From: Chloroflexota bacterium
GTDB taxonomy: Bacteria; Chloroflexota; UBA11872; VXOZ01
Direction of reading: 5' to 3'
Assembly: GCA_965221905.1 (NCBI GenBank)
Contig: OZ244922.1
Location: 2,688,001 to 2,752,000 of the forward strand
Length of the DNA: 64,000 bases
Shown here: positions 15,161-31,607 of the stretch, piece by piece
Numbering within the stretch: position 1 is the first letter of the stretch
Layout: the number at the start of each line of letters is the position of its first letter
Position numbers and translations under genes: made by a program
Notes under the pieces: model-generated
Database searches by the model: none
The model's input: only the letters and a program-made list of their open reading frames with translations
Told to the model about the DNA's origin: nothing

Positions 15161-16339
15161 ATGAGCGTCGTCGACGAAACCCGCATTCAAGAATCTGCGG
15201 AGCTGCTATCCGCGCTCGTGCGCATTCCGAGCATGAATCCAGCCTTTATGGCCGATGGCTCGGGTGGCGAGAGCGGGCTTGCCGATTTCGTGGAATCCCA
15301 GCTACAAGACCTCGGCCTGGAGACGCAGCAACACGAAGTGCTGCCGGGTCGGTCAAACGTCTTCGGCCGCCTGCGCGTGCCAAACTCCAAGGGTCTCCTG
15401 CTCTTCGAGTGCCACATGGATACGGTGGGCGTTGACACGTGGGGGCCGGCAGCCTTGGAACCACGGTTGGAGGGCACCACGCTGCACGGCCGCGGCTCCT
15501 GCGACGCAAAGGGGTGTCTTGCCGGTATGCTGCTCGCTATTCGCGAATTGGCGCAGCACCGTGAAGAACTCGCGGTGGATATTGGACTGCTGGGCGTCGT
15601 GGATGAGGAGTACCGCTTTCGCGGCATCGTCGGCTTCATAGAGCAAGAGATTCAAGCGACTGCAGCCGTAATCGGCGAACCAACCAGACTTGAGCTGGTG
15701 ACCGCCACGAAAGGGGCCGTACGCTTTACGCTGGAGACCAAGGGCAGGCCCGCCCACAGCAGCCAGCCTGAAAGGGGTAACAACGCCATCTACCAAATGG
15801 TCGACGTCATTCAGCACCTGCGCGAGACGTTGGACCCGCGCTTCGCGGCGCGCTCGCATCCGCTGGTGGGATATCCCACCTGGGCCATCGGCATCATCCA
15901 CGGCGGCCACGCCGCCAACGTCATACCGGAGACCTGCCAGGTGGTGGTCGACCGTCGCATCATTCCGGGCGAGACCTCAGAGGGGGCAATCCGGGAATTC
16001 GAAGAGGCCATGGAGCAACTTGCAGAGACCAAGTCCGACATGCATCCCAGTGTCGCATCGCGCGACCTCGGTGACTGGCCCCTTGATACCGCGAAAGACG
16101 AAGAGATCGTGCAAGCAGCCATGCGCGCCCTGCAAGCCCACAATCTCCCGCCGGAGCCGCAGGGAGTGACCTACGGCACGGACGCGAGCAAGCTCCAGGT
16201 GAAGAGCAACGTGCCCTGCATCGTTTACGGTCCCGGTGATATCGCCTACGCCCATACCGATCACGAACGCGTCGACCTCACTGAAGTCGCCCAAAGCGCA
16301 GAAATCTACGCCCAAATCGCCCGTGAGTTCAAGCCCTAG
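15161..16339 (+). CDS. M20 family metallopeptidase/deacylase (ArgE/DapE-like)
   Basis: CHMDTV, GRGSCDAKG, DEE, IGEPT, AHTDHE. Confidence 0.9.
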   Translation: MSVVDETRIQESAELLSALVRIPSMNPAFMADGSGGESGLADFVESQLQDLGLETQQHEVLPGRSNVFGRLRVPNSKGLLLFECHMDTVGVDTWGPAALEPRLEGTTLHGRGSCDAKGCLAGMLLAIRELAQHREELAVDIGLLGVVDEEYRFRGIVGFIEQEIQATAAVIGEPTRLELVTATKGAVRFTLETKGRPAHSSQPERGNNAIYQMVDVIQHLRETLDPRFAARSHPLVGYPTWAIGIIHGGHAANVIPETCQVVVDRRIIPGETSEGAIREFEEAMEQLAETKSDMHPSVASRDLGDWPLDTAKDEEIVQAAMRALQAHNLPPEPQGVTYGTDASKLQVKSNVPCIVYGPGDIAYAHTDHERVDLTEVAQSAEIYAQIAREFKP

Positions 16340-16470
16340 CGTTCCTTGGCACAAGAGGAATGTGGCAGTCGCACTTGGACCGCTTCTCGCTAGCCAAGGT
16401 GCAGAATTCCGTCATTCCCTGGCAAGAACACTATCCACTATCAGCGTGATTTCACTTGACTCTCAACACA

Positions 16471-16494
16471 GATACTCCCGCTTGCGCGGGAATG
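16471..16494. repeat. REP-like hairpin of the TCCCGC-N4-GCGGGA family (second copy at 56066-56089)
   Basis: gatactcccgcttgcgcgggaatg. Confidence 0.65.
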
Positions 16495-16522
16495 CATCTT
16501 CTGCTTTCTTGCTGCAAAACTC

Positions 16523-16573
16523 TTAGAGTACGGAGCAGCCTAGGTTGACCGCGGAGGCCACGCTGTCGCCGCG
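16523..16573 (-). pseudogene. 3'-end remnant of an eighth SBP-like lipoprotein paralog
   Basis: Minus frame reads RGDSVASAVNLGCSVL*, matching the paralog C-terminus RGDDVASAVNQGCSTL. Confidence 0.8.
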
Positions 16574-16650
16574 CTACGGTTGGCGAAATGTCTGGATAGT
16601 GTCGACAACGAAAATTAGCCAAGGAATCACGTCTACTCCCGTGCCGGTCC

Positions 16651-17922
16651 TCAGGCTTGTTGGTATTCACGCACGATGGAGCAGGCCTGGTTGACTACAG
16701 TCGCCACATCATCGCCGTCCACGAGAGCTTCTTCCAAATACCGGTTTGTACGCAGTTGCACCCCAGTCTGCGGCCAACCGCTTTCATGTTTCATAGACTG
16801 CTGTAGCGCGGTCACTTCTTCCGGTCGCAGGTCCTTCCGGGTCTCTCCTAGCATCGCTACCGCTTCTCTCTGTGCGGGCACAGTCACGTACTTCTGCATG
16901 ACGTTCGCCAGACCCCTCAGCGCTGAATACGCGGCCTCCGGGTTGGCGGTTCTCGCCGCAATCGCAATCCCGAAGTCTCCAAGCACCGGCACGGCGCGCA
17001 CCTTGCCGCGCGGGATCTCTGCCAGCCGGAAGTCGCCGTGGGACGGGCGCTTCGGGGCAAGACTGTAGACCATCGCCGGCGGCGTCCCCGACTCAAAGAT
17101 CAATTTCCCTAACTCTCTGTACAAAGCGGGCGAAACTCGATAGGTATGGAGTAGGTCGCGAAAGAACTGCAGGGCTTCAATCGCCGCCGGCTCCTGCAGC
17201 CGGCACTGCAACGTGTCCGGGTCTACCGCGTCCGCTTCGTTCTGCCAGAGCGCCCACCAGAGCCCATTGCTGTGTGTCGCCAGCCCCCAGCGCGCCACGG
17301 CGCCGTCTGCTCTCCGCTTCGTCAGCTTTGCCGCATTCGCCACCAGGGCATCCCAGTCCCAGTTGCTATCCACCGGCGGCACGCCCTCCCGCCGGAACTG
17401 TGCAGCATCATAGTAGAGCACCTGCGGGCGCACCCCTACCGGCAGGGCGTAGAGCGCGCCATTCGCTCGAAATTGGGAAAGTACATTGGGATAATACTCT
17501 TGCTCAATGTCAGGTCCATCGGTACCGCTGAACCGGTCCAGGGGCAAGAGTACCCCTCTTTCTCCTAGAGCCTGCGCATCATACGACGCCACCGTCACGA
17601 GGTCTGCTTCAAGGTCTTCCAGCAGTGCAGCATACTCATCCCAATGCGGAAACGTCCCGATTCGGCGCAGGGCAAGGCTGTAGCGGCCTTGTTCGAACCC
17701 ATAAGGATCATCTGCATCCTCTGCAAGCTCTGCCACTGCCTGTCGGTATTTCTCAAGAGGTCTCACCCCGTGTGTACCAGCGAGACTTGCAATCGAATCG
17801 GAGAACGCCAGATTCAAGCTTGTTTCTTGCAACGGGCCTGTCACCTTCGACTGAGAATCGAGGAAACCACAGCCCGTGGCGAGTAACGACGTGGCTATTA
17901 GCATGTTTCGGCGTGATAGCAT
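16651..17922 (-). CDS. Tat lipoprotein, extracellular solute-binding protein family 1-like (array copy 7)
   Basis: MLSRRNML Tat motif and LATGC lipobox; SBP motifs LLPLDRF, GALYALP, LYYD, WDWDAL; start set at MLSRR. Confidence 0.85.
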   Translation of the reverse strand: MLSRRNMLIATSLLATGCGFLDSQSKVTGPLQETSLNLAFSDSIASLAGTHGVRPLEKYRQAVAELAEDADDPYGFEQGRYSLALRRIGTFPHWDEYAALLEDLEADLVTVASYDAQALGERGVLLPLDRFSGTDGPDIEQEYYPNVLSQFRANGALYALPVGVRPQVLYYDAAQFRREGVPPVDSNWDWDALVANAAKLTKRRADGAVARWGLATHSNGLWWALWQNEADAVDPDTLQCRLQEPAAIEALQFFRDLLHTYRVSPALYRELGKLIFESGTPPAMVYSLAPKRPSHGDFRLAEIPRGKVRAVPVLGDFGIAIAARTANPEAAYSALRGLANVMQKYVTVPAQREAVAMLGETRKDLRPEEVTALQQSMKHESGWPQTGVQLRTNRYLEEALVDGDDVATVVNQACSIVREYQQA

Positions 17923-18038
17923 CTTCTTGCTCCTTCTCAGCGCCGTTTCACTGCTTGTCTGCGGCAAACTTCCTCGCGCACGAACCAGGCGATCTTTCAA
18001 TTGAATTCTAGGTGCGTTTGGGCTTCTTGCGCCGGATA

Positions 18039-18057
18039 GCGGGGAACAAGCCCCCGC
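18039..18057. repeat. REP-like hairpin GCGGGGG-N5-CCCCCGC between SBP paralogs
   Basis: gcggggaacaagcccccgc (one stem mismatch). Confidence 0.85.
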
Positions 18058-18135
18058 GCTGTGCTGGCTAGAGTGACAGTCTAGTGTTGACAAGGAGCAT
18101 CAGCCAAGGGTCGCCGTTTACTACCGAGCAGGGCT

Positions 18136-19448
18136 TTAGGCTTGCTGGTTCTCGTAGAATACAGTGCAGCCTTGATTGACCGCGGAGGTCACGTCGTCGC
18201 CGCGTGCGAGCGCCTCTACCAAGCGGAACATGGCACGGCGCTGCGCTATGTCATCAGGTCTCCCACGTCCGTATTCCATTGACTGTTGTATCGCCGTGAC
18301 CTCTTCCGGCTGGAGGTTTGGCTGGATCTGCCCGAGCCGCGCCACCGCCTCGCGCTCGCTAGGTACTCTGACATGCGGTTGCATGGTCTTCACAAGTCCC
18401 CTGAGCGCCATGTAGGCCGCCTCGGGATTGGCGGTTTGCGCGGCAATCGCAATCCCTGGGTAGGGATTGACCTGCGTGCTTGGCACCTTGCCCCGGGGTA
18501 GCTCTGCTCTACGATACTTGGCGCCAATCGCGAGGTAAAGGACAGGAAAATATATCATAGCCGGTGGGGATTCCAATGCACCATAGACAAACCTGTCCAG
18601 ATCATTTCCGGCGGCCGCGGGCGAGACAACATGGGTGTGCATCAAATCCCAAATGTACTCTCTAGCGCTTTGACGGCGGCCGGTTCCTGCAATCGGCATT
18701 GCGACGTTAGCGCGTCAGCTACCTCCGCTTCGTTCTGCCACAGCGCCCACCAAATTGAATAATCGTGCGCTATCAACCCCCAGCGCGTTACCGTGCCGTC
18801 CTCCTCACGCTGCGTCAGCCGCAGCGCGTTCTCAACCAGGACGTCCCAGTCCCAGCTACCGTCCGGCGGGGCCACCCCCATGCTTTCGAAATAGTCCGCA
18901 TCGAAAGAGAGCATCAGCGGATCCGCGCCTACCGGCAGAGCGTAGAGCGCGCCCTTCTCACGGTAATAATCAAGGACAGACGAATAGTATTCGCCACTGA
19001 GCCCGGACCCATCGCCGCTGAACCGGTCCAGGGGCAGCAATGCGCCCCGCTCCCCTAAGGCGCGCGCTTCGTCATGCCACACGGTCACGAGGTCCGCGCC
19101 AATTTCGTTCAGCCAGGATGCCAAGTGCTCGGGCTTGTAGAACTCCTCCGCTTCGGGATCCGAGTAGGGACCCGCGTAGCGCTCAAAGTATTGCAGTGAC
19201 AGGCTGTAGCGCCCGCGCGTGGGACCGAAGGCGCTGTCACTGTCTTCTGCTAGAATCCGCTCTATCCGCCGAAGTTTTTCCTCAGGCGACGCCACAAGGT
19301 GCCCAGGACCGAGACCGGTTATTATGTGCGAAACCCAAGTCAATGGGGTAATCTTCGGAGCGCCCAGCACCGGAAATGGAATATCCAGCCCGCCACAGCC
19401 GGCCGCGAGAACTGCCGTACTTCCAATCAACGTTCGGCGTGATAGCAT
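18136..19448 (-). pseudogene. Tat lipoprotein SBP-like paralog (array copy 6), frameshifted
   Basis: ORFs 18642-19466 and 18136-18699 join into one paralog if an extra AG (ctaGAGAGtac, ~18657-18662) is removed; could be a sequence error. Confidence 0.8.
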
Positions 19449-19565
19449 GACTTCCTTCCTTGCCATGAATCCTACATTCTCAAGACTGCAGGGCGCTCCC
19501 TAGTGCATAGACCAGCCCACCTCCCAACAGCTATCCCAGTTGGTTCATGCTTCTTGCGCCAGGCA

Positions 19566-19584
19566 GCGGGGGACAAACCCCCGC
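19566..19584. repeat. REP-like hairpin between SBP paralogs
   Basis: gcgggggacaaacccccgc. Confidence 0.85.
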
Positions 19585-19660
19585 GCTACGACTGGGGGAA
19601 TGGCGAGTTAGAGTTGGCAACGAGAACTAGCCAGTTCCCACGGCTAATTTTCGCTGACTC

Positions 19661-20941
19661 TCACGTCCGCTGGTTCTCGTAGAGGGTGGAGCAGCCTTGG
19701 TTGACTGCGGAGGCCACGTCGTCGCCGCGCACGAGCGCCTCCACCAGGTCGTACATAGCGCGATGCTGGGCCGGATCATGCGGCTCCGCGCGACCGTGTT
19801 CCATCGACTGCTGTATCGCCGTGACTTCTTCCGGTAGGAGGTCTGACCGGATCTGCCCAAGCCGCGCCACCGCTTCTCTCTCAGCGGGAATATAGACATG
19901 TGGCTGCATAGCGTGCACGAGTCCCCTGAGAGCCGTGTAGGCTGCTTCCGGCTTGGCAGTTTGCGCGACAATCGCGATTCCCGGATCGGTCCTGACCGGC
20001 ACGCTGCGTACTTTGCCCACGGGTAGCTCTGCCCGGCGATAATGGTCATACGGTGGCCCAATGGGGACCGGGCGATACACCATCGCAGGCGGCACTTTCC
20101 ACTCCCATTCCGCAGGAGAGACGCGGTGGGTGTGTATCAGGCCGCGGACATAATCCAAGGCTTCGATCGCTGCCGGTTCCTGGAGCAGACATTGTGAGGT
20201 AAGCGGGTCAATCATCTCGGTTTCGTTCTGCCAAAGCGCCCACCAAACAGAAAAGCCGTGTGCTGCCAGCCCCCAGCGCGACACTGTCCCGTCCTCCTCC
20301 CGCTGTGTCAGCTTGAGCGCGTTTTCCAGCAGGTCGTCCCAGTCCCAGCTACTGTCCGGCGGCACTACTCCCACCTGCGCAAAGTAGTCAACATCGTAGT
20401 AGAGCATCTGTGGGCCAGCGCCTATTGGCAGGGCGTAAAGCGCGCCGCTCTCTCGATTCGGATCAAGTACAGACGAGTAGAACTCCCCATTGAACCCAGA
20501 GCCATCGCCGCTGAACCGGTCCAAAGGCAGCAAGACGCCCATCTCCCCGAGCGCGCGCGCCTCGTCAGGCCACACGGTCACGAGATCTACGTCTACTTCA
20601 TCCAGCCACGCCGCCAAGTGCTCCACTTTGCGGAACTCCTGCGCAGCGGGATCAGAGTAGGATCCTGCGTAGCGCTCAACGTATTGCAGGGCAAGGCTGT
20701 AGCGCCCGCGCATGGGACCGAAGGGGTTTTCATCGTCATCCGCCAGTTTCCGCTCCATCCGTCGAAGCTTTTCCTCAGGCGGAAAGATACCGGGCCCAGT
20801 GCTGAAACCGGGAAGCGCGCGAGAGACCCAGGTCAATGGAGTGACCTTCGGAGTGCCTAGCTCTGGAAAGGAAAAATCCAGCCCGCCGCAGCCGGCCACC
20901 AGCACCGCTGTGCTTCCTATAAGCGTTCGGCGTGAAAGCAT
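19661..20941 (-). CDS. Tat lipoprotein SBP family 1-like (array copy 5)
   Basis: MLSRRTLIG Tat motif, LVAGC lipobox, SBP motifs; closest to copy 6. Confidence 0.87.
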   Translation of the reverse strand: MLSRRTLIGSTAVLVAGCGGLDFSFPELGTPKVTPLTWVSRALPGFSTGPGIFPPEEKLRRMERKLADDDENPFGPMRGRYSLALQYVERYAGSYSDPAAQEFRKVEHLAAWLDEVDVDLVTVWPDEARALGEMGVLLPLDRFSGDGSGFNGEFYSSVLDPNRESGALYALPIGAGPQMLYYDVDYFAQVGVVPPDSSWDWDDLLENALKLTQREEDGTVSRWGLAAHGFSVWWALWQNETEMIDPLTSQCLLQEPAAIEALDYVRGLIHTHRVSPAEWEWKVPPAMVYRPVPIGPPYDHYRRAELPVGKVRSVPVRTDPGIAIVAQTAKPEAAYTALRGLVHAMQPHVYIPAEREAVARLGQIRSDLLPEEVTAIQQSMEHGRAEPHDPAQHRAMYDLVEALVRGDDVASAVNQGCSTLYENQRT

Positions 20942-21058
20942 GACTTCCTTCCTTGCCGTGAATCCTACATTCTCAAGACTGCAGGGCGCTCCCTAGTGCA
21001 TAAACCAGTCCACCTCTCAACAGCTTTCCCAGTGGGTTTACGCTTCTTGCGCCTGGAA

Positions 21059-21077
21059 GCGGGGGACAGGCCCCCGC
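21059..21077. repeat. REP-like hairpin between SBP paralogs
   Basis: gcgggggacaggcccccgc. Confidence 0.85.
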
Positions 21078-21155
21078 GCTACGATTGGTGAAATGGCGGG
21101 CTAGTGTCGACAATCAGAATTAGCCAAGGAATCACGTCTACTCCCGTGCCTGTCC

Positions 21156-22466
21156 TCAGGCTTGTTGGTATTCACGCACGATGGAGCAGGCTTGATTCAC
21201 TGCAGTAGCAACATCGTCACCGCGTACGAGACCCTGAAGTGCTGAATCCATCGCAAATAACGCCGGGGCGCTTCGCGGCTGGGCGCGACCATGCTCCATG
21301 GACTGCTGAATCGCCAGGACCTCTTCAGTATGAAGGTCTGACCGTAATTCCTCGAGCCGTGCTACCGCATTTCTCTTTGCGGGAATTACCACATGCTGCT
21401 GCAAAGCGTCGACAAGACCCTTTAGTGCAATGTAGGCCGCCTCTGGCTTCTGTGTGCGCGCGACAATGCCAATCCCTAGGTCACCGTACACTGGAACGCT
21501 GTGCACTTTCCCCTGAGGCAACTTTGCTAGGTGGTAGTGTCCCGGCGGGCGTATGGGAGGACTGCTATACACCATGGCTGGCGCGAACCTTGCCGGCTCA
21601 AGAACGAGTTTCACTAAATCCATGTAGAGGAGCGCAGGAGAAACACGATGAGTGTGCAGCAGGCTGTGCACGAACTGCAGGGCTTCGACGGCGACCGGTT
21701 CCTGCAGCCGGCACCGCATCGTCTCCAGGTCAACCACGTCCGCCTCGTTCTGCCACAACGCCCACCAGAGTTGACTTCCATGCGCTGCCAACCCCCAGCG
21801 CAAGACTGAGCCATCCGCCCTTCGCTTTGTCAGCTTTAGCGCGCTTTCAACGAGATCATGCCAGTCCCAGATGCTGTCTACTGGCGGGGCAACATCCTCC
21901 AGCGCAAAGTAATCAACATCGTAGTAGAGCATCAGCGGACGTGCGTCGACCGGCAGGGCGTAGAGCGCCCCTTGCCGAAACTGCTCGAGCACACTTGGGT
22001 AGAATGCCTGTTCAAGGGCAAAGCTGTCGGATGAAATTAGCTGGTCTAGAGGCAGCAACACGCCTTCTTCCCCTAGCGCCCTTGCCCCCTCCGGTCCCAC
22101 AGTTACGAGGTCTGCCCCAAGATCGTGCAGCCATTGAACGAACTCTCCCTCGGCCAATTCCGGCAACTGTTCCACGTGGCGCAAAGTGAGGCGGTACTTT
22201 CCACGCTTCTGACCATAAGGGTTCTCTTCATCCTCCTCAAGGGCAGATACGGCCTCTTGGTATTTCTCCACAGGGCGGAGGCCTGCAATGGGATTCATAA
22301 GGCCAGGGAACCAGCTAAAGGTCACCCAGGTTAGCTCCGCCTCTTGTGGTGAGCTTGGCGCGGAAAAGAATGACCCAAGAGGACCACAACTGGCTGCGAG
22401 CACCGACGCGCCTCCGATCATGGTTCGGCGTGTTAGCCTGATTCTCCGGCGAAGTTCCATAGTCAC
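21156..22466 (-). CDS. Tat lipoprotein SBP family 1-like (array copy 4)
   Basis: LTRRTMIG Tat motif, LAASC lipobox, SBP motifs; start overlaps the stop of copy 3. Confidence 0.87.
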   Translation of the reverse strand: MTMELRRRIRLTRRTMIGGASVLAASCGPLGSFFSAPSSPQEAELTWVTFSWFPGLMNPIAGLRPVEKYQEAVSALEEDEENPYGQKRGKYRLTLRHVEQLPELAEGEFVQWLHDLGADLVTVGPEGARALGEEGVLLPLDQLISSDSFALEQAFYPSVLEQFRQGALYALPVDARPLMLYYDVDYFALEDVAPPVDSIWDWHDLVESALKLTKRRADGSVLRWGLAAHGSQLWWALWQNEADVVDLETMRCRLQEPVAVEALQFVHSLLHTHRVSPALLYMDLVKLVLEPARFAPAMVYSSPPIRPPGHYHLAKLPQGKVHSVPVYGDLGIGIVARTQKPEAAYIALKGLVDALQQHVVIPAKRNAVARLEELRSDLHTEEVLAIQQSMEHGRAQPRSAPALFAMDSALQGLVRGDDVATAVNQACSIVREYQQA

Positions 22467-23718
22467 CCACCCGATGGACCACCTGTTTGCTGGTACTCCC
22501 GCAAAACGGAACAGGCCTGGTTGACCACGGTTGAAACGTCTTCGCCCCGTACCAGACCCTCTGCTATCGCACTCATGGCGTACAACTCCGGCTTGCCTTG
22601 CGGCAGTCGCGGCATCTCCCGTTCAGCCGCCATGGAACGCTGAATTGCCTGGATTTCGTCGGAGCGGATGCCGGGCTGAAATTCTCCGAGCCGTTCGATT
22701 CCGTCCCTGGTTGCGGGCACGGTGGCATGCCGCTGCATGGCGTGCACCAGACCCTGGAGGGCCGTATAGGCCGTCTCAGGACTTTGTGTTCCCGCGGCGA
22801 TAGCAAGCCCAACGCCTGCCCTCACCGGCACGGCCTGCGTCTTGCCTTGGGGAATCTGAGCCAAACCGTACGAGCCAAAACTCGGGCGCAGCGGCGGGTT
22901 ATTGTAGACCATAGCCGGTGGCGGGGTCACCTTCATCAAATCCATGCCGAGAGCAAGTGGCGACACCTGCAAGGTGTGCAGGAGTTTCCACACAAATTGC
23001 AGCGCTTCGATTGCGGCCGGTTCCTGCAAACGACACTGCAACGCTGCCGGGTCCGCTACGTCCGCATCGTTTTGCCACAGCGCCCACCAGAGCTTACTAT
23101 GCGCCCGCAATCCCCAACGCCGCACTACGCCGTCTTGCCCGCGATTAGTTAGCTTCGCCGCATTTTCTGCCAGTTCGTCCCAGCCCCAACTGCTGTCAAC
23201 CGGCGGCACTCCCCGCTGTGCGAAATACACTCTGTCGTAATAGACCATCACGGGCAAGGCGCTAACCGGCAGCGCATAGAGCGCCCCTTGCGCCCGAAAC
23301 TGATTCAGTACCCCCGGAAAGAACACCGCGTTGAGCGCACTTTCATTGGCGTCGCTGAACCGATCCAGAGCATGCAACACCCCCATTTCCCCAGTAACCT
23401 TGCCTCCTCCACGGACACTGTGAGCAGGTCCGCCTTGAGCTCGTGCCATGCATCCACGTCGTCCCAGCGGGGCGCCTGCTGTATAGCGCGAACTTGGAGA
23501 CGGTAACGCCCGCCCGGCGGGCCAAGCGGATTCGCTGGGTCTTCATTTAGGGCGTCGACTATTTGCTGCTGATTGCCAATGCCGAGGAATGGCCTCCAGA
23601 CCCACACGAGCTCAGTCTCGTGGAGCGTGACCGGTCCGGACACTAGCGACTCAAGCTGACCGCAGCCAACGGCACATAGGGCTGCCGCGCTGACTGTCAA
23701 CGCTCGGCGTGAAAGCAT
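22463..23718 (-). pseudogene. Tat lipoprotein SBP-like paralog (array copy 3), frameshifted
   Basis: ORFs 23305-23718 and 22463-23449 join as RLLGEMGVLH if one base is added to the 4-nt G/C run at 23389-23392; could be a homopolymer sequence error. Confidence 0.8.
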
Positions 23719-23835
23719 GACTTCCTTCCTTGCCGTGAATCCTACATTCTCAAGTCTGCAGCGTGCTCCCTAGACCAATAACCAGTTCACCTCTCAACAG
23801 CTTTTCCAGTGGGTTTACGCTGCTTGCGCCAGGAA

Positions 23836-23854
23836 GCGGGGGACAAGCCCCCGC
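23836..23854. repeat. REP-like hairpin between SBP paralogs
   Basis: gcgggggacaagcccccgc. Confidence 0.85.
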
Positions 23855-23932
23855 GCTACGATTGGTGAATTGGCGGGATTGTGTCGACAACGAAAATTAG
23901 CCAAGGATTCACGTATACTCCCGTGCCGGTCC

Positions 23933-25204
23933 TCAGGCTTGTTGGTATTCACGCACGATGGAGCACGCTTGGTTGACTACAGTCGCCACATCATCGCCGT
24001 TCACGAGAGCTTCAACTAAATATCTATCTGCACGTAATTGCACCCCTGTTTGCGGCCAACCGCTTTCATGTTTCATAGACTGCTGTAGCGCGGTCACTTC
24101 TTCCGGTCGCAGGTCCTTCCGGGTCTCTCCTAGCATCGCTACCGCTTCTCTCTGTGCGGGCACAGTCACGTACTTCTGCATGACGTTCGCCAGACCCCTC
24201 AGCGCTGAATACGCGGCCTCCGGGTTGGCGGTTCTCGCCGCAATCGCAATCCCGAAGTCTCCAAGCACCGGCACGGCGCGCACCTTGCCGCGCGGGATCT
24301 CTGCCAGCCGGAAGTCGCCGTGGGACGGGCGCTTCGGGGCAAGACTGTAGACCATCGCCGGCGGCGTCCCCGACTCAAAGATCAATGTCCCTAACTCTCT
24401 GTACAAAGCAGGCGAAACTCGATAGGTATGGAGTAGGTCGCGAAAGAACTGCAGGGCTTCAGTCGCCGCCGGCTCCTGCAACCGGCACCGCAACGTGTCC
24501 GGATCTACCACGTCCGCTTCGTTCTGCCAAAGCGCCCACCAGAGCCCATAGTTGTGAGTCGCCAGCCCCCAGCGCGCCACGGCGCCGTCTGCTCTCCGCT
24601 TCGTCAGCTTTGCCGCATTCGCCACCAGGGCATCCCAGTCCCAGTTGCTATCCACCGGCGGCACGCCCTCCCGCCGGAACTGTGCAGCATCATAGTAGAG
24701 CACCTGCGGGCGCACCCCTACCGGCAGGGCGTAGAGCGCGCCATTCGCTCGAAACTGGTCGAGCACATTGGGATAATACTCTTGCTCAATGTCAGGTCCA
24801 TCGGTACCGCTGAACCGGTCCAGGGGCAAGAGCACCCCTCTTTCTCCTAGAGCCTGCGCGCCATACGACCCCACCGTCACGAGGTCCGCTTCAAGGTCTT
24901 CCAGCAGTGCTGCATACTCATCCAAACCCGGCCACGTACCGACTCGCCGCAGGGTAAGGCTATAGCGGCCTTGTTCGAACCCATAAGGATCATCTGCATC
25001 CTCTGCAAGTTCTGCCACTGCTTGCCGATATTTCTCAAGAGGTCTCACCCCGTGTGTGCCAGTGAGACTTGCAATCGCATCGGAAAACGCCAGATTCAAG
25101 CTTGTTTCTTGCAACGGGCCTGTCACCTTCGCCTGAGACTCGAGAAAGCCGCAGCCAGCGGCAAGCGCCGCTGTACTTCCAATCAGCGTTCGGCGTGAAA
25201 GCAT
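23933..25204 (-). CDS. Tat lipoprotein SBP family 1-like (array copy 2)
   Basis: MLSRRTLIG Tat motif and LAAGC lipobox; same length (1272 nt) as, and near-identical to, copy 7. Confidence 0.87.
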   Translation of the reverse strand: MLSRRTLIGSTAALAAGCGFLESQAKVTGPLQETSLNLAFSDAIASLTGTHGVRPLEKYRQAVAELAEDADDPYGFEQGRYSLTLRRVGTWPGLDEYAALLEDLEADLVTVGSYGAQALGERGVLLPLDRFSGTDGPDIEQEYYPNVLDQFRANGALYALPVGVRPQVLYYDAAQFRREGVPPVDSNWDWDALVANAAKLTKRRADGAVARWGLATHNYGLWWALWQNEADVVDPDTLRCRLQEPAATEALQFFRDLLHTYRVSPALYRELGTLIFESGTPPAMVYSLAPKRPSHGDFRLAEIPRGKVRAVPVLGDFGIAIAARTANPEAAYSALRGLANVMQKYVTVPAQREAVAMLGETRKDLRPEEVTALQQSMKHESGWPQTGVQLRADRYLVEALVNGDDVATVVNQACSIVREYQQA

Positions 25205-25320
25205 CTTCCTGCTCCTTCTCGGTGCCGCTTCTTCTCTTGTCCGCGGCGTACTTCCTCGCGTACGAACCAAGCGATCTCTCAAGGGAATCCTAAGTGAGTT
25301 TGGGCTTCTTGCGACGGATG

Positions 25321-25349
25321 GCGGGAGGGGGGGGGGGACAAGCCCCCGC
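25321..25349. repeat. REP-like hairpin with an expanded G11 run
   Basis: gcggga-G11-acaagcccccgc. Confidence 0.8.
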
Positions 25350-25409
25350 GCTGCGCTGGCTAGGATGACAGTTTAGTGTTGACAAGGAGCATCAGCCAAC
25401 GGTCGCCGT

Positions 25410-26675
25410 TTACTCCTGCGTCTTCCCACCTGTTTGCTGGTACTCACGCAAGAGGGAACAGGCCTGGTTGACGACCGTCGACACGTCGTCACCGCGCACA
25501 ATTCCCTCTACTAGTGCTGCCATGGTGTAGAGTTCCGGCGCGCCCTGCGGCATACGTGGCATCTCGCGTTCGGCTTCCATTGACCTTTGAATTGCCGTCA
25601 CTTCCTCCGGCCTCAATCCCTTTTGGAACTCCCCAAGCCTTTCAATTGCTTCTCTCGCTGCGGGCACAGCGGCATGCCGTTGCATGGCATGCACCAGACC
25701 CTTCAGCGCCGTGAAGGCTACATCAGGCTTCTCAGTATTTGCGGCAATACCGACTCCCACGCCCGCCCTCACGGGTACAGCACGCACTTTGCCATGAGGG
25801 ATCTCTGCCAAGCGGTAGGAGCCATAATTCGGACGTAAAGGGGGATTTGTATAGACTATGGCTGGCGGCGGAGTCATCCTCACTAAGTCCATATTGAGAA
25901 GGGGAGGCGAAACTCGGTCTCTATGCAGTAGCCCGCTCACGAATTGAATGGCTTCTACAGCGGCTGGTTCTTGAAGCCGACACTGCAATGTTCGACTGTC
26001 AACCATCGCCGCTTCGTTCTGCCACAATGCCCACCAGATTTGACTATGTGCCGACAATCCCCAACGCCGCACGACGCCATCTTCCCCACGATCAGTCAGT
26101 TTCATCGCGTGGCGTGCAAGCTCATCCCAACTCCAATTCCCCTGCACTGGCGAAACCTGCTTCAGGGCAAAGTAGTCAACGTCGTAGTACACCATCAATG
26201 GCAATGCACTTGCGGGCAGCGCGTAGAGCGAGCCCTGTGCCTGAAACTGATTGAGCACACCCGGAAAGAAGGCCGAGTTGAGCGCAGCCCTATCAGTGCC
26301 ACTGAACCGCTCCAGTGGCAGCAGCACTCCGTTCTCCCCCAATACCTTCGCCTCTTCCGCCGACACGGTTAGCAAGTCCGCCTCAAGACCGCGCCATGCA
26401 TTTAGATCATCCCAGCTTGGCGCAAGAGCCAAGTTGCGCAGCTTAAGTCGGTAGCGTCCCCGCTGTGAGCCTTCAGGGTTCTCATCGTCTGCGGCGAGCG
26501 TAGCAATTATCTGCTGCGGATCATCAAGTCCAACTAGCCGCCGCGAGACCCAGGTAAGTTCAGTCTCTTTGGGCACGCTCGGCCCGGAAATAAGTGACTC
26601 GAGTGGGCCGCAGCCGACAGCAGCAAACGCCGAAGCGCTGGCCATCATTACTCGGCGTGAGAGCATAGTATTCAT
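25410..26675 (-). CDS. Tat lipoprotein SBP family 1-like (array copy 1)
   Basis: MLSRRVMM Tat motif, AAVGC lipobox, SBP motifs; closest to copy 3. Confidence 0.87.
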   Translation of the reverse strand: MNTMLSRRVMMASASAFAAVGCGPLESLISGPSVPKETELTWVSRRLVGLDDPQQIIATLAADDENPEGSQRGRYRLKLRNLALAPSWDDLNAWRGLEADLLTVSAEEAKVLGENGVLLPLERFSGTDRAALNSAFFPGVLNQFQAQGSLYALPASALPLMVYYDVDYFALKQVSPVQGNWSWDELARHAMKLTDRGEDGVVRRWGLSAHSQIWWALWQNEAAMVDSRTLQCRLQEPAAVEAIQFVSGLLHRDRVSPPLLNMDLVRMTPPPAIVYTNPPLRPNYGSYRLAEIPHGKVRAVPVRAGVGVGIAANTEKPDVAFTALKGLVHAMQRHAAVPAAREAIERLGEFQKGLRPEEVTAIQRSMEAEREMPRMPQGAPELYTMAALVEGIVRGDDVSTVVNQACSLLREYQQTGGKTQE

Positions 26676-26848
26676 CCTAGATTTACGGTTTTGGATTCTT
26701 GCTGCATCCTTTCATCCGATTCGCAGCCAAGAAACCGCAGAGTGCCCAAGAAAATGTCGATGTCTACTCCTGGGCACTCCGCAAGTCCCCTCAGCCCTCC
26801 TTCCACTCGCATTTTAAGGAGAGAAGCAATCTACCAGAATGCGCTTTG

Positions 26849-27169
26849 TCAACTGCACGAAATGCACCCTACTAAGGTGACTTCATTGTGGCAGGCCCCT
26901 CCTGAGAGGCAGTGAACTCCTGTTCGCACGTGGTACCTGCCTTTGTCGTTACCGCAGCCATGGTCGCCGCAGAAGCCATTAATGTGGTAGCTACCCGTCT
27001 CGCAGAAATAGGGTCCCACACAATGATTGTCGGCAGAAACTCCTACAGCAGCGAGACCGGTGAGCACGGCAGCGCCTGTGGTGGCGCGCACCAGTCTTCC
27101 CAGAAATCCGCGTCGGTTCATGCTGGCCTTTGCCAGGCCGACACTCGCATTCGCAAATAGCTTATCCAT
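26849..27169 (-). CDS. Small Tat-exported Cys/His-rich protein with MauA-like leader (106 aa)
   Basis: GGGAGG RBS before MDKLF; NRRGFL twin-Arg motif; VSA|D cleavage site; 60-aa mature part with 8 Cys, 6 His, 0 Trp; occupies the mauA position after mauE-mauD. Confidence 0.85.
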   Translation of the reverse strand: MDKLFANASVGLAKASMNRRGFLGRLVRATTGAAVLTGLAAVGVSADNHCVGPYFCETGSYHINGFCGDHGCGNDKGRYHVRTGVHCLSGGACHNEVTLVGCISCS

Positions 27170-27271
27170 GGGTTTACCTCCCATGCTTTGCATGCATTGC
27201 GTCTGTGATGCGACTATCGCGTGGGACATCTTTACACTTGGTGTTCGGGTTCCACGCTCTGTGCGCGGATG

Positions 27272-27844
27272 TCACACGCTCTCATTCTTTGGCAAGCTGC
27301 CGGTCGTCACATCAGTAGCGAGCAGCTCGCCTAGCACATGCACATCGTTCACCACCCCCTTTCCAGCGATTTTGCCATCGGCATCGACCACGAAGCCGTA
27401 CGGCGTCCAACTACTGCCGTACAAGTCGGCTATCTCATGCTCCTGCTGGATCACCAGCGGACACGAGAGCTTGAATTCTGCAATCATCTCTTGGTTCTGC
27501 TCACGGCTGCCGCCGCTTACGAGCACCAAGCGCGCGCCTTGTTCCTCAATGCTGTTCATTTCCCCATTCAGGCTCGCGAACAGTTCCTTGCAGGGCGGGC
27601 AGGTGGGATGAACGAAGAGCACCAACAGCCGCTCGCCAGCCATGGTCTCCAGGTCAACCGCCCCATTGAGACCCTCTCCTTGGAAGAGCGGCGCTTTGTC
27701 ACCGACCGCGATACCGTTCTCGCGCTCTTCCCCGACGCGTAGGCGCAACTCGCCAATCTGCCGCATGAGGCCAATGACGACGAAGGTGAGCAGGCCCATG
27801 AGGACCCATTGCAGTAGGTACGATGCCAGCCAGATGCCTTCCAT
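27272..27844 (-). CDS. MauD-like membrane-anchored thioredoxin-fold (TlpA/redoxin) protein
   Basis: N-terminal TM followed by RQIGEL, VGDKAP, FVHPTCPPCKEL, TPYGFVVD; AGGAGG RBS before MEGIWL. Confidence 0.85.
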   Translation of the reverse strand: MEGIWLASYLLQWVLMGLLTFVVIGLMRQIGELRLRVGEERENGIAVGDKAPLFQGEGLNGAVDLETMAGERLLVLFVHPTCPPCKELFASLNGEMNSIEEQGARLVLVSGGSREQNQEMIAEFKLSCPLVIQQEHEIADLYGSSWTPYGFVVDADGKIAGKGVVNDVHVLGELLATDVTTGSLPKNESV

Positions 27845-27887
27845 GCCTCTTGCCTCCTGATCCACTTTGGCGACCGGTTGCCGTTGA

Positions 27888-27936
27888 TGCTTCGACCCTT
27901 CGACAAGCTCAGGACAGGCAACCTCAGCACGAACGG
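27888..27936. repeat. Nested REP-like elements of the CTTCGACAAGCTCAG family
   Basis: tgcttcgac[ccttcgacaagctcaggacaggc]aacctcagcacgaacgg; the outer part is the reverse complement of the 60742 repeat with one mismatch. Confidence 0.8.
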
Positions 27937-27986
27937 ATCCGCGCATGCTCACCATAGTGTGTTAGAGCCTAGCCCCTCCGCCCCGC

Positions 27987-28015
27987 CTGGATTCCGGCTT
28001 GCGCCGGAACGACGG
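27987..28015. repeat. REP-like hairpin TTCCGGC-N4-GCCGGAA
   Basis: ctggattccggcttgcgccggaacgacgg. Confidence 0.65.
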
Positions 28016-28029
28016 ATAGTTGCTTTCCT

Positions 28030-28620
28030 TCAATATGATTGGGGAATAGTGCGCAGCCGCAGCAATTCGGCGGCGACGAAGGCCACCGCCCACGCCCCGA
28101 TCACGAACAAGGCAACCCCTGCCACGCTGCTGGCGTCCCCAGTGAGACCGACCTCCACTAGCCAAGTTGCACCGGCAGTGGGCGCCAGGAGTACAAGCAA
28201 TGTCAGGATGACGACCTGCTTGATGATGGTGGCTTTGCCCAGCGGCTGACGGCCCGCGCCGAAGCAGTAGCAGTCGATCCCGCCCCGGCCCTGTGCTAAC
28301 GCCACGGACGAGGCTACGATGAAAGCTACCACCAGGATTACGCCCAACCACACACCCCATGCCACGGCAAAGCCCGTGATGAGCAAAGTGCCACAGAGGA
28401 GTTCCAATACGGGGATCGCGCCACTCACCGGCTGGAGCGCGCGCACCGGCACGAGACCAAATCCCTGCACCGCCGCTTTGAAATCGGACAGGTGCAGCAA
28501 CTTGGCGGCGGCAGCCAGGAGAAAAACGCCACCCACCAGGAATTGGAGCACGAGCACGCCAGTTGCAAGCATTAGCCCGTTCCTTCCAGATCGGGAGGGA
28601 CCTTTTGGCATATCCTCCAC
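28030..28620 (-). CDS. MauE/DoxX family membrane protein
   Basis: VFLLAAAAKL, IPVLELLCG, GIDCYCFG (cf. MauE IDCGCFG); about 5 TM helices. Confidence 0.88.
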   Translation of the reverse strand: MEDMPKGPSRSGRNGLMLATGVLVLQFLVGGVFLLAAAAKLLHLSDFKAAVQGFGLVPVRALQPVSGAIPVLELLCGTLLITGFAVAWGVWLGVILVVAFIVASSVALAQGRGGIDCYCFGAGRQPLGKATIIKQVVILTLLVLLAPTAGATWLVEVGLTGDASSVAGVALFVIGAWAVAFVAAELLRLRTIPQSY

Positions 28621-28681
28621 GATCTCTCTCCCAACCCACTTTTAGCGTCATTATTGACTAGCACTGTTATGTCATACATGC

Positions 28682-28709
28682 ATGCTAGCACATAATAATA
28701 ATGTGTCAA
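28682..28709 (-). promoter_or_regulatory. Candidate sigma70 promoter of the mauE-like operon with a palindrome in the spacer
   Basis: Minus strand TTGACA, 16 bp, (TGc)TAGCAT; CACAT-N7-ATGTG at 28689-28705; locally AT-rich. Confidence 0.55.
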
Positions 28710-28864
28710 TAGTTAAATGAACTAACTCTTGAGATTCCGTGAGATACTGCACGTTCTCAGATAAGAACGCGGTTGCTCACCTTGCAAGAATGGTGGGCAT
28801 GCGGGGATCCGGCGCCCAGGAGATCAGCGAGGGGGTAACAGCGCCTTGAGCCAAGCGCTTGAGG

Positions 28865-29662
28865 CTATGCCTCTAGCTGTGGCGGGGGAAGGAGCTGAGT
28901 GATGTGCGACATGGCGGCGTCTACGTGGCGCTTGCCGTCCTGCAGCGAGAAGCTCCCGTGGCCGGGGAATAACTGCGTGAATTCCAGCTCAGCAAAGCGC
29001 TTTACGGTGGCGATGGACTCCTCAAGCGAGCAATCCCAGATGTTCTGGAGAATGATGCGGCCGCCAGAAAAGAGGGCATCGCCGCTGAAGAGAGCGCGGT
29101 GTGCGCCGCCTCCGCGTTGCGCGCCGCCTCCTCGTTGCGGGCAGTCTTCGCGTTGCGCGCAGTCGTCAACAAGGAATGCCAGGTGGCCGCGGCTATGGCC
29201 GTCGGCTTTCAAAACCGTCACAGTGAGCGACCCAACGTTGATGACGTCGCCATCCGCAGCAGCGGTCGCGGACGCCACCGGCCGCAAGCGGTTTTCTAAC
29301 GGATACATGCCTGTTTGACGCGCGGCAACCAGGCTCGCCGCCTCTTCATCACCGGTCTCGAGCCAGCCGGCAACGTCCTGGGAAGCGATTATTTCGGCGC
29401 CACATAATTGCTGCAACTCCGCGGCGCCACCGGCATGATCGAGGTGCAGGTGCGTGACGAATATCTTGGAAATGTCACGGGGATCGAAACCGGCGGCCTC
29501 AATCTGTGCCGCTATCGCCGGTGTGTCCCTGCCGACGCCGGTATCGATGAGGGCCAGTTCCGATCCTCCGTCGAGCAGATAGACGTGGCAATCGAGCGGG
29601 TCGGTGAGGCTAAAACCGCTTTGGCCGCTGCCAACAAGATGAACGATATTCGTGAGTTGCAT
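28865..29662 (-). CDS. Metallo-beta-lactamase fold hydrolase
   Basis: LIDTG, THLHLDHAGG, GHSRGH, FSGD, FPGHG. Confidence 0.88.
   Translation of the reverse strand: MQLTNIVHLVGSGQSGFSLTDPLDCHVYLLDGGSELALIDTGVGRDTPAIAAQIEAAGFDPRDISKIFVTHLHLDHAGGAAELQQLCGAEIIASQDVAGWLETGDEEAASLVAARQTGMYPLENRLRPVASATAAADGDVINVGSLTVTVLKADGHSRGHLAFLVDDCAQREDCPQRGGGAQRGGGAHRALFSGDALFSGGRIILQNIWDCSLEESIATVKRFAELEFTQLFPGHGSFSLQDGKRHVDAAMSHITQLLPPPQLEA
29096..29164. repeat. 18-bp tandem repeat (~4 units) inside the MBL gene
   Basis: Encodes DCAQRE/DCPQRG/GGAQRG/GGAHR. Confidence 0.8.
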
Positions 29663-30440: not shown

Positions 30441-31607
30441 CTACTCAGATACCGCGCGCGCGTAATCCATCACCTGCTTCACCGGCACCTGTGCCGCCGT
30501 TGCAACTTGCAAGCAGTCTTCGTACTCCGGACTGCGATTCACTACCTTGCCGTGCCAGTGCGCGACCTTGATCCGCACCGCACCCCACGGTGTGCCCACG
30601 TGCTCCACCTGCCGCTCCAGCTTGATCCGCTCGACCCGGTGCATGCGTACGCCAATCGTCGTGGTCTCTTGAAAGACAATGTCCAGCAGGGGCGTGTGGT
30701 CTGCGGCTTCCGTCAGCACACTGAGCACGTGACCGGGCCTGCCCTTCTTCATCTGAACGGGGGCCAACATCACGTCCAGCGCGCCGGCCTTGAATAATTG
30801 CGCGGAAACGTGACCATACAACTGCGGATTCATGTCGTCGATTGTGGTTTCGATAACGGTTGCCATGCCATGGGTGTTTGCAGCCGTTTCCTCCCCGATG
30901 ATGAGGCGCAATACGTTGGGGATTTCGCTGTCGCGCATGCCCGCGCCGTAGCCCACGCGTTTCACCTGCATTGTCGGGATTGGGCCGAACTCATCCGCCA
31001 ACTCGCTCAGCAGGAGCGCGCCGGTTGGCGTTAGGGTCTCACCCATGTCCGCCATGGCATAGATCGGTTTGTCCTTCATCAAATCCAGCGTCGCCGGACC
31101 CGGAATCGGCCACCAACCGTGACGAGTCTGAATGGGCGCGCTGCCTCCGATGTTAACGGGTGAGCAGACGATGCGCTCGATACCAAGCGCCCGCAGTCCC
31201 GCCACCACACCGACGACGTCGAGGATTGAATCGACCGCGCCGACTTCATGAAAGTGCACCGCCTCCGGCGCCACGCCGTGCATGCGGCCCTCGACTTCCG
31301 CCAAACGCTCAAAGAGTCGTTTACTTGCCGCGACTACGTCCTCGTCGAGGCTGCTCCCTTCGAGGAGCTGCACAATATCGTGGAGGTTTCGCTCAACCGT
31401 ATGCTCATGCGCATCAATGTCGATGTGAACTTGCAATGCCCGGAGCAGCCCCTTGCGCACTTCCTCCGACCGGACCTCATAGCCGCCGAGCGGAATCTTG
31501 GCGAACGTGGCCTTGAGATCGTCCAGCGCCCAGCCGCCATCCACCAAGGCGCCAAGCATCATATCGCCCGATGCTCCGGCAAAGCAGTCGAAATAGGCGA
31601 CTCTCAT
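30441..31607 (-). CDS. larC: Nickel pincer cofactor biosynthesis nickel insertase LarC
   Basis: YFDCFAGASGDMMLGAL, VHFHEVGAVDSI, TPTGA, QMKKGRPG, ETTTIG, PEYED. Confidence 0.95.
   Translation of the reverse strand: MRVAYFDCFAGASGDMMLGALVDGGWALDDLKATFAKIPLGGYEVRSEEVRKGLLRALQVHIDIDAHEHTVERNLHDIVQLLEGSSLDEDVVAASKRLFERLAEVEGRMHGVAPEAVHFHEVGAVDSILDVVGVVAGLRALGIERIVCSPVNIGGSAPIQTRHGWWPIPGPATLDLMKDKPIYAMADMGETLTPTGALLLSELADEFGPIPTMQVKRVGYGAGMRDSEIPNVLRLIIGEETAANTHGMATVIETTIDDMNPQLYGHVSAQLFKAGALDVMLAPVQMKKGRPGHVLSVLTEAADHTPLLDIVFQETTTIGVRMHRVERIKLERQVEHVGTPWGAVRIKVAHWHGKVVNRSPEYEDCLQVATAAQVPVKQVMDYARAVSE

Follow-up and report, generated by a model that had tools for sequence, protein, structure and literature searches.

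Operons for methylamine dehydrogenase contain the gene order mauE-mauD-mauA. We found the same order, that is, a MauE membrane protein, a thioredoxin-fold MauD with a CxxC motif and a small disulfide-rich protein exported by the twin-arginine translocation (Tat) pathway, in a 64,000-nucleotide stretch of a Chloroflexota bacterium (contig OZ244922.1, positions 2,688,001 to 2,752,000; hereafter the window), where the three genes are followed by seven genes for lipoproteins with the fold of solute-binding proteins (SBPs). The genome (G000) is a single contig of 3.52 Mb, and the locus lies on its minus strand; coordinates are those of the window unless they are given in Mb. In contrast to the mau operons, the small protein here is not MauA, as it has neither a match to PF02975 nor the conserved Trp pair, and no MauG was found. 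In addition, the module is present in several copies, its substrate is polymorphic and tied to SBP lipoproteins, and the MauD-like protein scores under the equivalog cutoff.

MauE has also been described as a general protein of the DsbB type: according to the available text of a recent preprint, MauE homologs substitute for DsbB in E. coli, for which the CxC motif, usually followed by F-G, is required (bioRxiv 10.64898/2026.03.05.709764). The available text of that preprint does not contain the string 'Chloroflex'. The MauE of the window shares with the proteins described there both the CxC followed by F-G and the thioredoxin-fold partner, but unlike a generalist it appears to be dedicated to one substrate, being co-duplicated with it, not found in the genomes that lack the peptide, and present besides a DsbB.

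Two further systems are close to the locus. The MalE-like SBPs of CUT1-type ATP-binding cassette (ABC) importers have the same fold and belong to the same family (SBP_bac_1) as the Tat-signal lipoproteins found here. In contrast to those importers, the SBP arrays here have no adjoining permease gene, although a transporter could sit elsewhere, and the subfamily is restricted to the genus among 60 relatives (E 1e-60) and tied to the miniprotein gene. Polymorphic toxin-immunity loci, like the present one, combine a constant N-terminal part with a variable core, a co-varying downstream gene, displaced cassettes and orphan partners. The locus differs from them in that it has no recognisable toxin domain, that the partner is an SBP-fold lipoprotein of 420 residues, and that Tat export is combined with dedicated disulfide enzymes.

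As described below, it is moderately supported that the miniprotein and the SBP-fold lipoprotein encoded behind it form a functional pair. Our leading, still tentative, explanation is that MauE and MauD oxidatively fold the exported miniprotein, and that the cognate SBP-fold lipoprotein acts as its receptor- or immunity-like partner.

Maturation genes and miniprotein cassettes

The MauE-like protein scores 80.7 bits against PF07291 (cutoff 27, E 1.5e-22) and contains a DCYCFG motif at residues 117-121. The MauD-like protein, with CPPC at residues 82-85 and a hydrophobic N-terminus that reads as a membrane anchor, matches AhpC-TSA with 61.9 bits and Redoxin with 42.9 bits. Its best NCBIfam match is the MauD model TIGR02661, which it covers over 175 of 189 positions, but the score of 67.1 bits is under the equivalog cutoff of 188.6, and we therefore call the protein MauD-like and not a MauD equivalog. 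The open reading frame (ORF) of mauD spans 27272-27955, while translation probably begins at an ATG at 27844 that has GGAGG 8 nt 5' of it; relatives align with the long ORF no earlier than from residue 13-35. The gap between mauE and mauD contains, at 27879-28017, a short repeated element with the translations PELVEG, SLSKG and FDKLRTG, which extends the 5' end of the mauD ORF. In 4/4 runs the depth over this repeat is far above that of the neighbouring bins, and many contigs end loosely in it.

A tblastn search over the genome revealed three mauE-mauD-peptide-SBP loci, between which mauE and mauD are 77-93% identical and the peptides 54-63%. No match to MauA (PF02975) was obtained when the genome was searched in six frames (E up to 1), and none to MauG (PF03150), which a control search did find in 4 of 14 genomes; MauB (PF06433) gave no match in the genome either, but this is uninformative, since the controls gave none. 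A separate DsbB homolog is located at 3.206 Mb and no VKOR was found in the genome, which supports a dedicated over a general role for the three MauE/MauD pairs. With the window's MauE as query, we obtained no match in the five peptide-less genomes of the genus. The suggestion made in the initial annotation, that the pair serves the small Tat protein and not a methylamine dehydrogenase, agrees with the joint duplication of the three genes at three loci and with the lack of MauA and MauG matches. The role of MauE and MauD as dedicated folding enzymes of the exported miniprotein is well supported. They probably form its disulfide bonds, this redox direction being the one that we infer.

The peptide ORF spans 26849-27229, and the real start is MDKL at 27169, behind a GGAGG ribosome-binding site; 5' of MDKL the reading frame differs in both paralogous copies. 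The precursor has a Tat leader (MNRRGFLGRL...VSA|D) and a core of about 60 residues. Alignments of 25 and of 41 members show hardly any variation over the first 45 residues, while the core keeps eight Cys, one His, one Gly and little more. The invariant His adjoins the first Cys, as the second or third residue of the predicted mature end. The cores contain 2-10 His each, some core types have ten Cys, and the net charge is mostly neutral or acidic (-9 to +3). No Trp column is invariant or reaches at least 90% across the cores, and some core types have one or two Trp ahead of the third conserved Cys. The family comprises 32 database clusters, and a database source assigns close homologs to Chloroflexota. 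One database protein, P0156 (181 aa), carries a response-regulator receiver domain fused with the leader's end and with an entire Cys-rich core, which may be a rearrangement or an artefact of gene calling.

The peptide family is present in 11 of the 16 other genomes of the genus and in none of the 44 genomes compared from five further families in the class. MauE gave no match in the peptide-less genomes and SBPs are found in all 16, so that mauE and mauD accompany the peptide, and the SBP family has a wider distribution than these three. A whole-genome scan for small Tat-exported Cys-rich ORFs flagged 32 frames, with no peptides among them except the three already known, and the ORF lists upstream of the peptide-less SBP arrays contained no alternative peptide. 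In the regions fetched, an SBP match follows the peptide match in 25 of 25 cases. For the peptide ORFs extracted with a motif, which missed three peptide genes (L010, L016 and L019), the SBP start is 115-202 nt downstream (22/22). Two relatives, G004 and G005, have strings of units, each composed of a mauD 3' relic, a peptide gene and one to four SBP genes, behind a single intact mauE-mauD (7 relics).

To compare the parts of these cassettes we used 21 core-SBP pairs, one pair with a truncated SBP being omitted. Pairwise identity averages 0.73 among leaders, 0.39 among cores and 0.54 among adjacent SBPs. The identity matrices of the cores and of their adjacent SBPs correlate with r 0.80 (n=21), a value reached by none of 5000 permutations. 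At the 12 loci with a complete mauD, whose mean identity is 86%, the correlation is 0.87 between core and SBP (0/5000), -0.14 between core and mauD, and -0.01 between SBP and mauD. The co-divergence of core and SBP is independent of mauD, which indicates that the exchange unit is the core together with the SBP, and that the breakpoint is in or before the leader. Diversifying selection, as implied by the initial annotation, is not supported: between pairs of cores, the ratio of nonsynonymous to synonymous divergence (dN/dS) takes values of 0.08-0.59, and most dS values exceed 1 or are saturated, which allows no claim of positive selection. In several pairs the leader dS (0.28-0.75) is lower than the core dS, and the data fit old core types reshuffled behind a homogenised leader.

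The same arrangement was found far outside the genus. We searched the window's MauE in 300 further genomes of the phylum and fetched 16 places with homologs. Remote homologs (at most 39% identity) are present in 22 genomes outside the genus, and five loci in three genomes of one other family have a MauE with CxCFG (L024, L028 and L035 in G085; L034 in G107; L030 in G061). These genomes, of 5-7 Mb and from a distant Chloroflexota genus, contain several MauE genes each (up to 5 matches). Four of the five loci have a MauD-like gene whose N-terminus is plainly like that of the window, and all five have small twin-arginine ORFs with 12-20 Cys and many CC pairs, in patterns unrelated to the core of the window. 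Of seven complete peptide ORFs, four have an SBP Tat lipoprotein that matches the SBP profile (E 1.4e-38 to 5.8e-22) less than 1 kb downstream on the same strand, and L024 and L034 show the exact order mauE-mauD-peptide-SBP, which is thus kept across two families. Of the other peptides, one precedes a 495-aa Tat lipoprotein without a recognised family and one a YbbR-like protein. With approximately one SBP-like gene per 85 kb in these genomes, an adjacency of 4/7 is, by our own estimate, far above chance. This recurrence is the strongest independent argument that the four kinds of gene work jointly, and the small Cys-rich ORFs of the distant family are likely a second, unrelated set of MauE/MauD substrates.

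The coupling of peptide and SBP proposed initially is thus supported by strict adjacency, by co-divergence and by the same order in the distant family. It had also been asked whether the array and the module occur independently in relatives: in one direction this is so, since the SBPs are present in 16/16 genomes of the genus against 11/16 for the peptide, and at four peptide-less places in this genome.

Likeness of the core to thrombospondin repeats

To look for relatives of the core, we built a profile of 21 mature cores, which gave 18 matches among 1.84 billion representative proteins; six of these are members of the family. The other 12 are long proteins with 4 to 28 matched stretches each, every one of them composed of TSP1 repeats (PF19028, PF00090); both of the named proteins among them are tunicate spondin-like proteins. 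The score per repeat is 12-22 bits, and the alignment spans the whole thrombospondin type-1 repeat (TSR), with six of the eight core Cys falling on the six TSR Cys. Comparison of the core alignment with 34 classic-pattern TSRs by hhalign gave a probability of 93.3% (P 2.8e-7, score 34.6, 53 columns), for a TSR set that was itself drawn from the proteins picked by the core profile. The corresponding controls scored 10.3 for the reversed alignment and 9.5 on average for 100 column-shuffled ones, with a maximum of 16.1. When single cores were compared with the Pfam models of TSP1, just one of the 21 matched, at E 0.044, which is short of significance, and the window's peptide gave no match.

The core and the TSR (PF00090, PF19028) are of similar length, about 55 residues, with C10, C21, C26, C47, C56 and C59 of the core in register in the profile alignments. 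The motifs G-x-x-C and terminal C-P are common to both, and the core model has three long strands. In contrast to the TSR, the core is without the WxxW tryptophan ladder and has an extra Cys pair (C4 and C41), and it is a single free domain behind a bacterial Tat leader, whereas the TSR is a repeat in a large matrix protein. Given the missing Pfam significance, the missing Trp ladder, the self-picked repeats and the fact that no solved TSR was found, we call the core TSR-like on the basis of the profile comparisons and leave its membership in the family open.

The AlphaFold2 model of the core is of good quality (predicted local distance difference test, pLDDT, 83-90) and contains the three long strands mentioned above. 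A Foldseek search of this model against PDB returned nothing at E 1e-3 or better. VIA fold searches, both wide and on Foldseek's list, gave a best Z of 3.8 and listed no TSR or MauA chain, which does not by itself make the folds different. The likeness in fold to the laterosporulin bacteriocins is weak and non-significant (Z 2.8-3.1). At the sequence level, the core profile has no match among PDB sequences at E up to 10, and none of the 21 cores matches MauA (PF02975) at E up to 10. Among the language-model neighbours of a peptide homolog, a cluster of methylamine dehydrogenase light chains is at rank 9 (score 0.93, 157 shared features), which we take as a lead only; the neighbours also hint at clusters from Actinomycetota and Planctomycetota. 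The core is not MauA-like by sequence, and its best resemblance is to the TSR.

The lipoprotein array and its surroundings

The features of the locus are collected in Table 1. The gene string read initially from the sequence, with mauE-like and mauD-like (CPPC) genes, a small Tat substrate and seven paralogous Tat lipoproteins on the minus strand, was confirmed throughout, and the promoter expected ahead of it corresponds to a promoter-like site. Of the 'seven paralogs plus one remnant', the seven hold, and the remnant is probably a piece of a frameshifted SBP.

Table 1 Features of the mauE-mauD-miniprotein-SBP locus, in 5' to 3' order of the genes
Feature	Position	Strand	Remarks
Promoter-like site 5' of mauE	28682..28709	-	TTGACA-16-TAGCAT, TG-extended, 10/12 matches; consensus match alone
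MauE-like membrane protein, 196 aa	28030..28620	-	PF07291; CxC-F-G motif
MauD-like thiol-disulfide oxidoreductase, 190 aa	27272..27844	-	N-terminal membrane anchor, CPPC; ORF reaches 27955
Secreted miniprotein precursor, 106 aa	26849..27169	-	Tat leader and 60-aa core (26852-27031)
GC-rich hairpin, 70-115 nt past the peptide stop	26737..26782	-	Followed by GGTTTCTTGG
SBP1, Tat lipoprotein beside the window's peptide, 418 aa	25410..26666	-	PF01547, signal and lipobox
SBP2	23933..25204	-	92% DNA identity to SBP7; orthologous to second-position SBPs of G004 and G005
SBP3, split	22463..23718	-	1-nt loss in G run near 23360
SBP4	21156..22460	-	G004 ortholog directly 3' of peptide gene (groups with L010_3218)
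SBP5	19661..20941	-	93% identity to G004 SBP (L007_7573) directly 3' of peptide gene
SBP6, split	18136..19448	-	2-nt AG insertion near 18655; paralog at 3.088 Mb intact
SBP7, final gene of the string	16651..17922	-	SBP_bac_1 family
Terminator-like hairpin with T-rich tail, 3' of SBP7	16474..16493	-	Consensus match alone

All seven SBP_bac_1 genes start with MLSRR (one with ME..RR) and encode a twin-arginine motif and a lipobox Cys at residue 17-24. Nine of the 11 SBP ORF pieces that were scanned match SBP_bac_1 in Pfam with 34.6-55.2 bits (cutoff 26); the pieces 23305-23718 and 18136-18699 gave no match. The break in SBP3 is identical in a second genomic copy at about 3.0871 Mb (231 nt compared). 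The splits in SBP3 and SBP6 could be real pseudogenes, assembly errors or slippage-prone sites. In the alignment of the SBP family, C232 and C406 (SBP1 numbering) are invariant in 80 sequences, a pattern that suggests a conserved disulfide within the SBPs.

A quick maximum-likelihood tree of 53 full-length SBPs, in which three rows labelled as later members of a string actually follow peptide genes missed by the motif, shows the SBPs that directly follow a peptide interleaved with those further down the strings. Two peptide-less SBPs of the window, SBP5 and SBP4, are close orthologs of SBPs located directly 3' of peptide genes in G004. This orthology indicates that the window contains one complete cassette and several partners without a peptide. 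Four more places in the genome (L003-L006) hold the SBP family without mauE, mauD or peptide, and their SBPs form basal clades in the tree. The subfamily reaches up to 25 matches in one genome.

As regards transport, BPD_transp_1 permeases have 18 matches in the genome, and a profile built from them retrieved the same 18 ORFs and no more loci. None of these permeases is in the window or in the vicinity of the seven places where this SBP family occurs. By comparison, there are about 45 SBP_bac_1-like places in the genome, and most of the weaker SBP matches are, by coordinates, tens of kb or more from the listed permease genes. The initial annotation had noted neither an ABC permease nor an ATPase in the window: this holds for the permease (no BPD_transp_1) but not for the ATPase, as a 568-aa ORF at 139-1845 (minus strand), 15 kb from the locus, has an ABC ATPase domain, the only one of the window. 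ABC ATPase-domain genes (PF00005) adjoin the SBP array at 3.085-3.089 Mb: those at 3.0898 and 3.0918 Mb are on the opposite strand, and the one at 3.0808 Mb is upstream. Two 600-aa ABC ATPase-domain ORFs (L002, 11594-15380, minus strand, about 3.0896-3.0934 Mb) are convergent to the end of this second array and look like exporter halves.

The spacers of approximately 210 nt between SBP genes (25205-25412, 23719-23935, 20942-21158, 19449-19663 and 17923-18138) are mutually conserved and contain a GCGGGGG...CCCCCGC hairpin, their consensus fold being one short hairpin; the spacer between peptide and SBP1 differs. There, a strong GC-rich hairpin follows the peptide gene, as it does in 22 of the 22 peptide genes examined. 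The hairpin at 26737-26782 is not a genome-wide repeat, since its pattern occurs once per strand and at the second locus only. Possible roles are attenuation, partial termination or stabilisation of a short transcript, and it could also be a full stop, which the initial annotation had named among the results that would speak against its reading. Rfam gave no match over 16300-28900 at E up to 1. In one metatranscriptome run, exact-match contigs cover 26796-27058 in the peptide gene and 25444-25662 and 26142-26390 in SBP1 at a depth of about 3; such contigs carry no information on strand, ends or joint transcripts, and may stem from DNA carry-over.

The neighbouring genes are housekeeping or unrelated, and include those for an M20 peptidase, a Na/H exchanger, a protein of the metallo-beta-lactamase (MBL) fold, LarC- and LarB-like proteins, enolase, and folate and purine genes. 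The LarC-like protein (PF01969 nickel insertion protein, E 6.6e-136) and the AIR-carboxylase-like (LarB-like) protein are encoded upstream on the same strand, at 30441-32380, which suggests synthesis of the nickel-pincer cofactor.

Possible roles of the module

In the explanation that we favour, MauE would act as a DsbB-like membrane oxidase, through its CxC, and re-oxidise the membrane-anchored thioredoxin MauD (CPPC), which would in turn introduce four disulfides, or five in some types, into the small Tat-exported protein. Cleavage by signal peptidase would then release a free, three-stranded TSR-like domain of about 60 residues. The Tat SBP-fold lipoprotein encoded downstream would be its cognate partner, and would most likely bind the miniprotein at the cell surface, as a receptor or an immunity-like sink. 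Core and partner would be inherited and exchanged jointly behind a constant mauE-mauD-leader region, and the extra SBP paralogs would be partners without a local peptide gene, like orphan immunity or receptor genes. That the miniprotein binds the SBP, and that the pair serves recognition or protection, is suggested by analogy with the layout of polymorphic toxin-immunity and pheromone-receptor loci.

Several observations weigh against this explanation. The AlphaFold2 model of SBP1 (pLDDT 88) has an ordinary oligosaccharide-binding fold, which matches 5f7v (E 3.8e-23), 5ysf, 6rjy and MalE with 14-20% identity. The SBP family (E 1e-60) is present in 16/16 genomes of the genus, including the five without the peptide, and in 0/44 genomes of other families; since it is wider than the peptide and has basal peptide-less clades, the SBPs must have a function that is independent of the peptide. 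Each of the distant genomes has 33-81 matches to the SBP profile, so that its SBPs are members of a large family and orthology is not proven. Linkage alone can yield co-divergence of neighbours, which leaves a physical interaction unproven, and the core dN/dS is below 1, with no sign of an arms race. Pfam scans of the window's peptide and of the 21 cores gave no match to a toxin or bacteriocin family. Finally, an earlier study, as cited in the available text of the MauE preprint (bioRxiv 10.64898/2026.03.05.709764), suggested that MauE may be a reductase.

The alternative that survives best, although we regard it as rather improbable, is nutrient capture. The lipoproteins would be ordinary oligosaccharide SBPs that feed shared importers encoded elsewhere, the array would be a glycan repertoire, and the miniprotein a glycan-binding helper or a bystander. 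The match of the SBP1 model to solved oligosaccharide SBPs, the SBP_bac_1 scores above the Pfam cutoff, the presence of the SBP family in genomes without the peptide and the peptide-less arrays of this genome are all in line with it, as is the binding of sulfated glycans by eukaryotic TSRs. The excess of SBP-like places over permease matches (about 45 against 18) also counts in its favour, with the consequence that permease sharing would have to be the rule here. However, the seven places of the family have no permease nearby (PF00005 genes do adjoin the array at 3.085-3.089 Mb). Strict adjacency and a type-for-type co-divergence that is independent of mauD would be unexpected for an unrelated neighbour, and the same four-gene order recurs with unrelated cores in a distant family.

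A second alternative, which is a specific form of the favoured explanation and in our view unlikely, is that the miniprotein is antimicrobial, a disulfide-rich bacteriocin, with the SBP-fold lipoprotein as immunity partner and the peptide-less SBPs as orphan immunity genes. Its layout is that of polymorphic toxin-immunity loci: a conserved leader with a variable core, a cognate downstream gene, displaced cassettes and orphans. A hairpin is common after bacteriocin precursor genes, and here a strong one stands behind the structural gene in 22/22 cases; the laterosporulin likeness points the same way, but it is weak and non-significant. These points are opposed by the lack of any toxin or bacteriocin family match, by cores that are not cationic and have dN/dS below 1, and by the absence of a dedicated exporter or lysis gene. 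To our knowledge, SBP-fold immunity proteins of 420 residues are not an established type.

It is very unlikely that the TSR-like domain is a eukaryote-like adhesion mimic that acts on a eukaryotic host or matrix, with the SBP genes functionally separate. Outside the family, the core profile matched only the 12 multi-repeat TSP1 proteins among 1.84 billion representatives, and none of the 100 shuffled controls came near the hhalign result over 53 columns (93.3%). However, the cores of the distant family are not TSR-like, so that the module does not depend on this likeness, and the co-divergence of peptide and SBP is left unexplained. Least likely of all is a Cys/His-rich small subunit, matured in the manner of MauA to a redox-active or metal-binding form with the SBP-fold protein as large subunit or chaperone: the gene order mirrors mauE-mauD-mauA, an invariant His adjoins the first Cys among 2-10 His per core, and a MauA cluster is a language-model neighbour (rank 9, lead only), but neither the 21 cores nor the genome match PF02975, MauG was not found, the lack of an invariant or at least 90% Trp column makes a cofactor of the tryptophan tryptophylquinone type unlikely, and cores as extremely divergent as these (mean identity 39%) are more in keeping with a binding surface than with an active site.

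In the main texts of open-access papers and preprints, we found no description of MauE/MauD combined with Tat-exported Cys-rich miniproteins and SBP arrays, nor of a comparable bacterial TSR-like family. The known kind behind the locus is a MauE/MauD-assisted Tat substrate in a cassette layout like that of polymorphic loci, and the locus has a fair chance of representing a new kind of system. A more far-reaching proposal, which we consider possible but doubtful, is that it belongs to an undescribed class of Chloroflexota cassettes, in which MauE and MauD make polymorphic miniproteins, in this genus a bacterial version of the TSR, each recognised by its own SBP-fold receptor or immunity factor recruited from sugar transport, while the extra receptors would serve for the peptides of neighbours.

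If the favoured explanation is true, the miniproteins would be a second natural class of MauE/MauD substrate, besides the methylamine dehydrogenase light chain, and MauE/MauD could be a dedicated and duplicated maturation module alongside a general DsbB. The SBP fold would then have a secreted protein as its partner and do without a neighbouring transporter gene, which could explain the excess of SBPs over permeases in the genus. The comparisons also point to a bacterial family that resembles the animal TSR, and the cassette structure supplies cognate and non-cognate pairs that can be tested directly.

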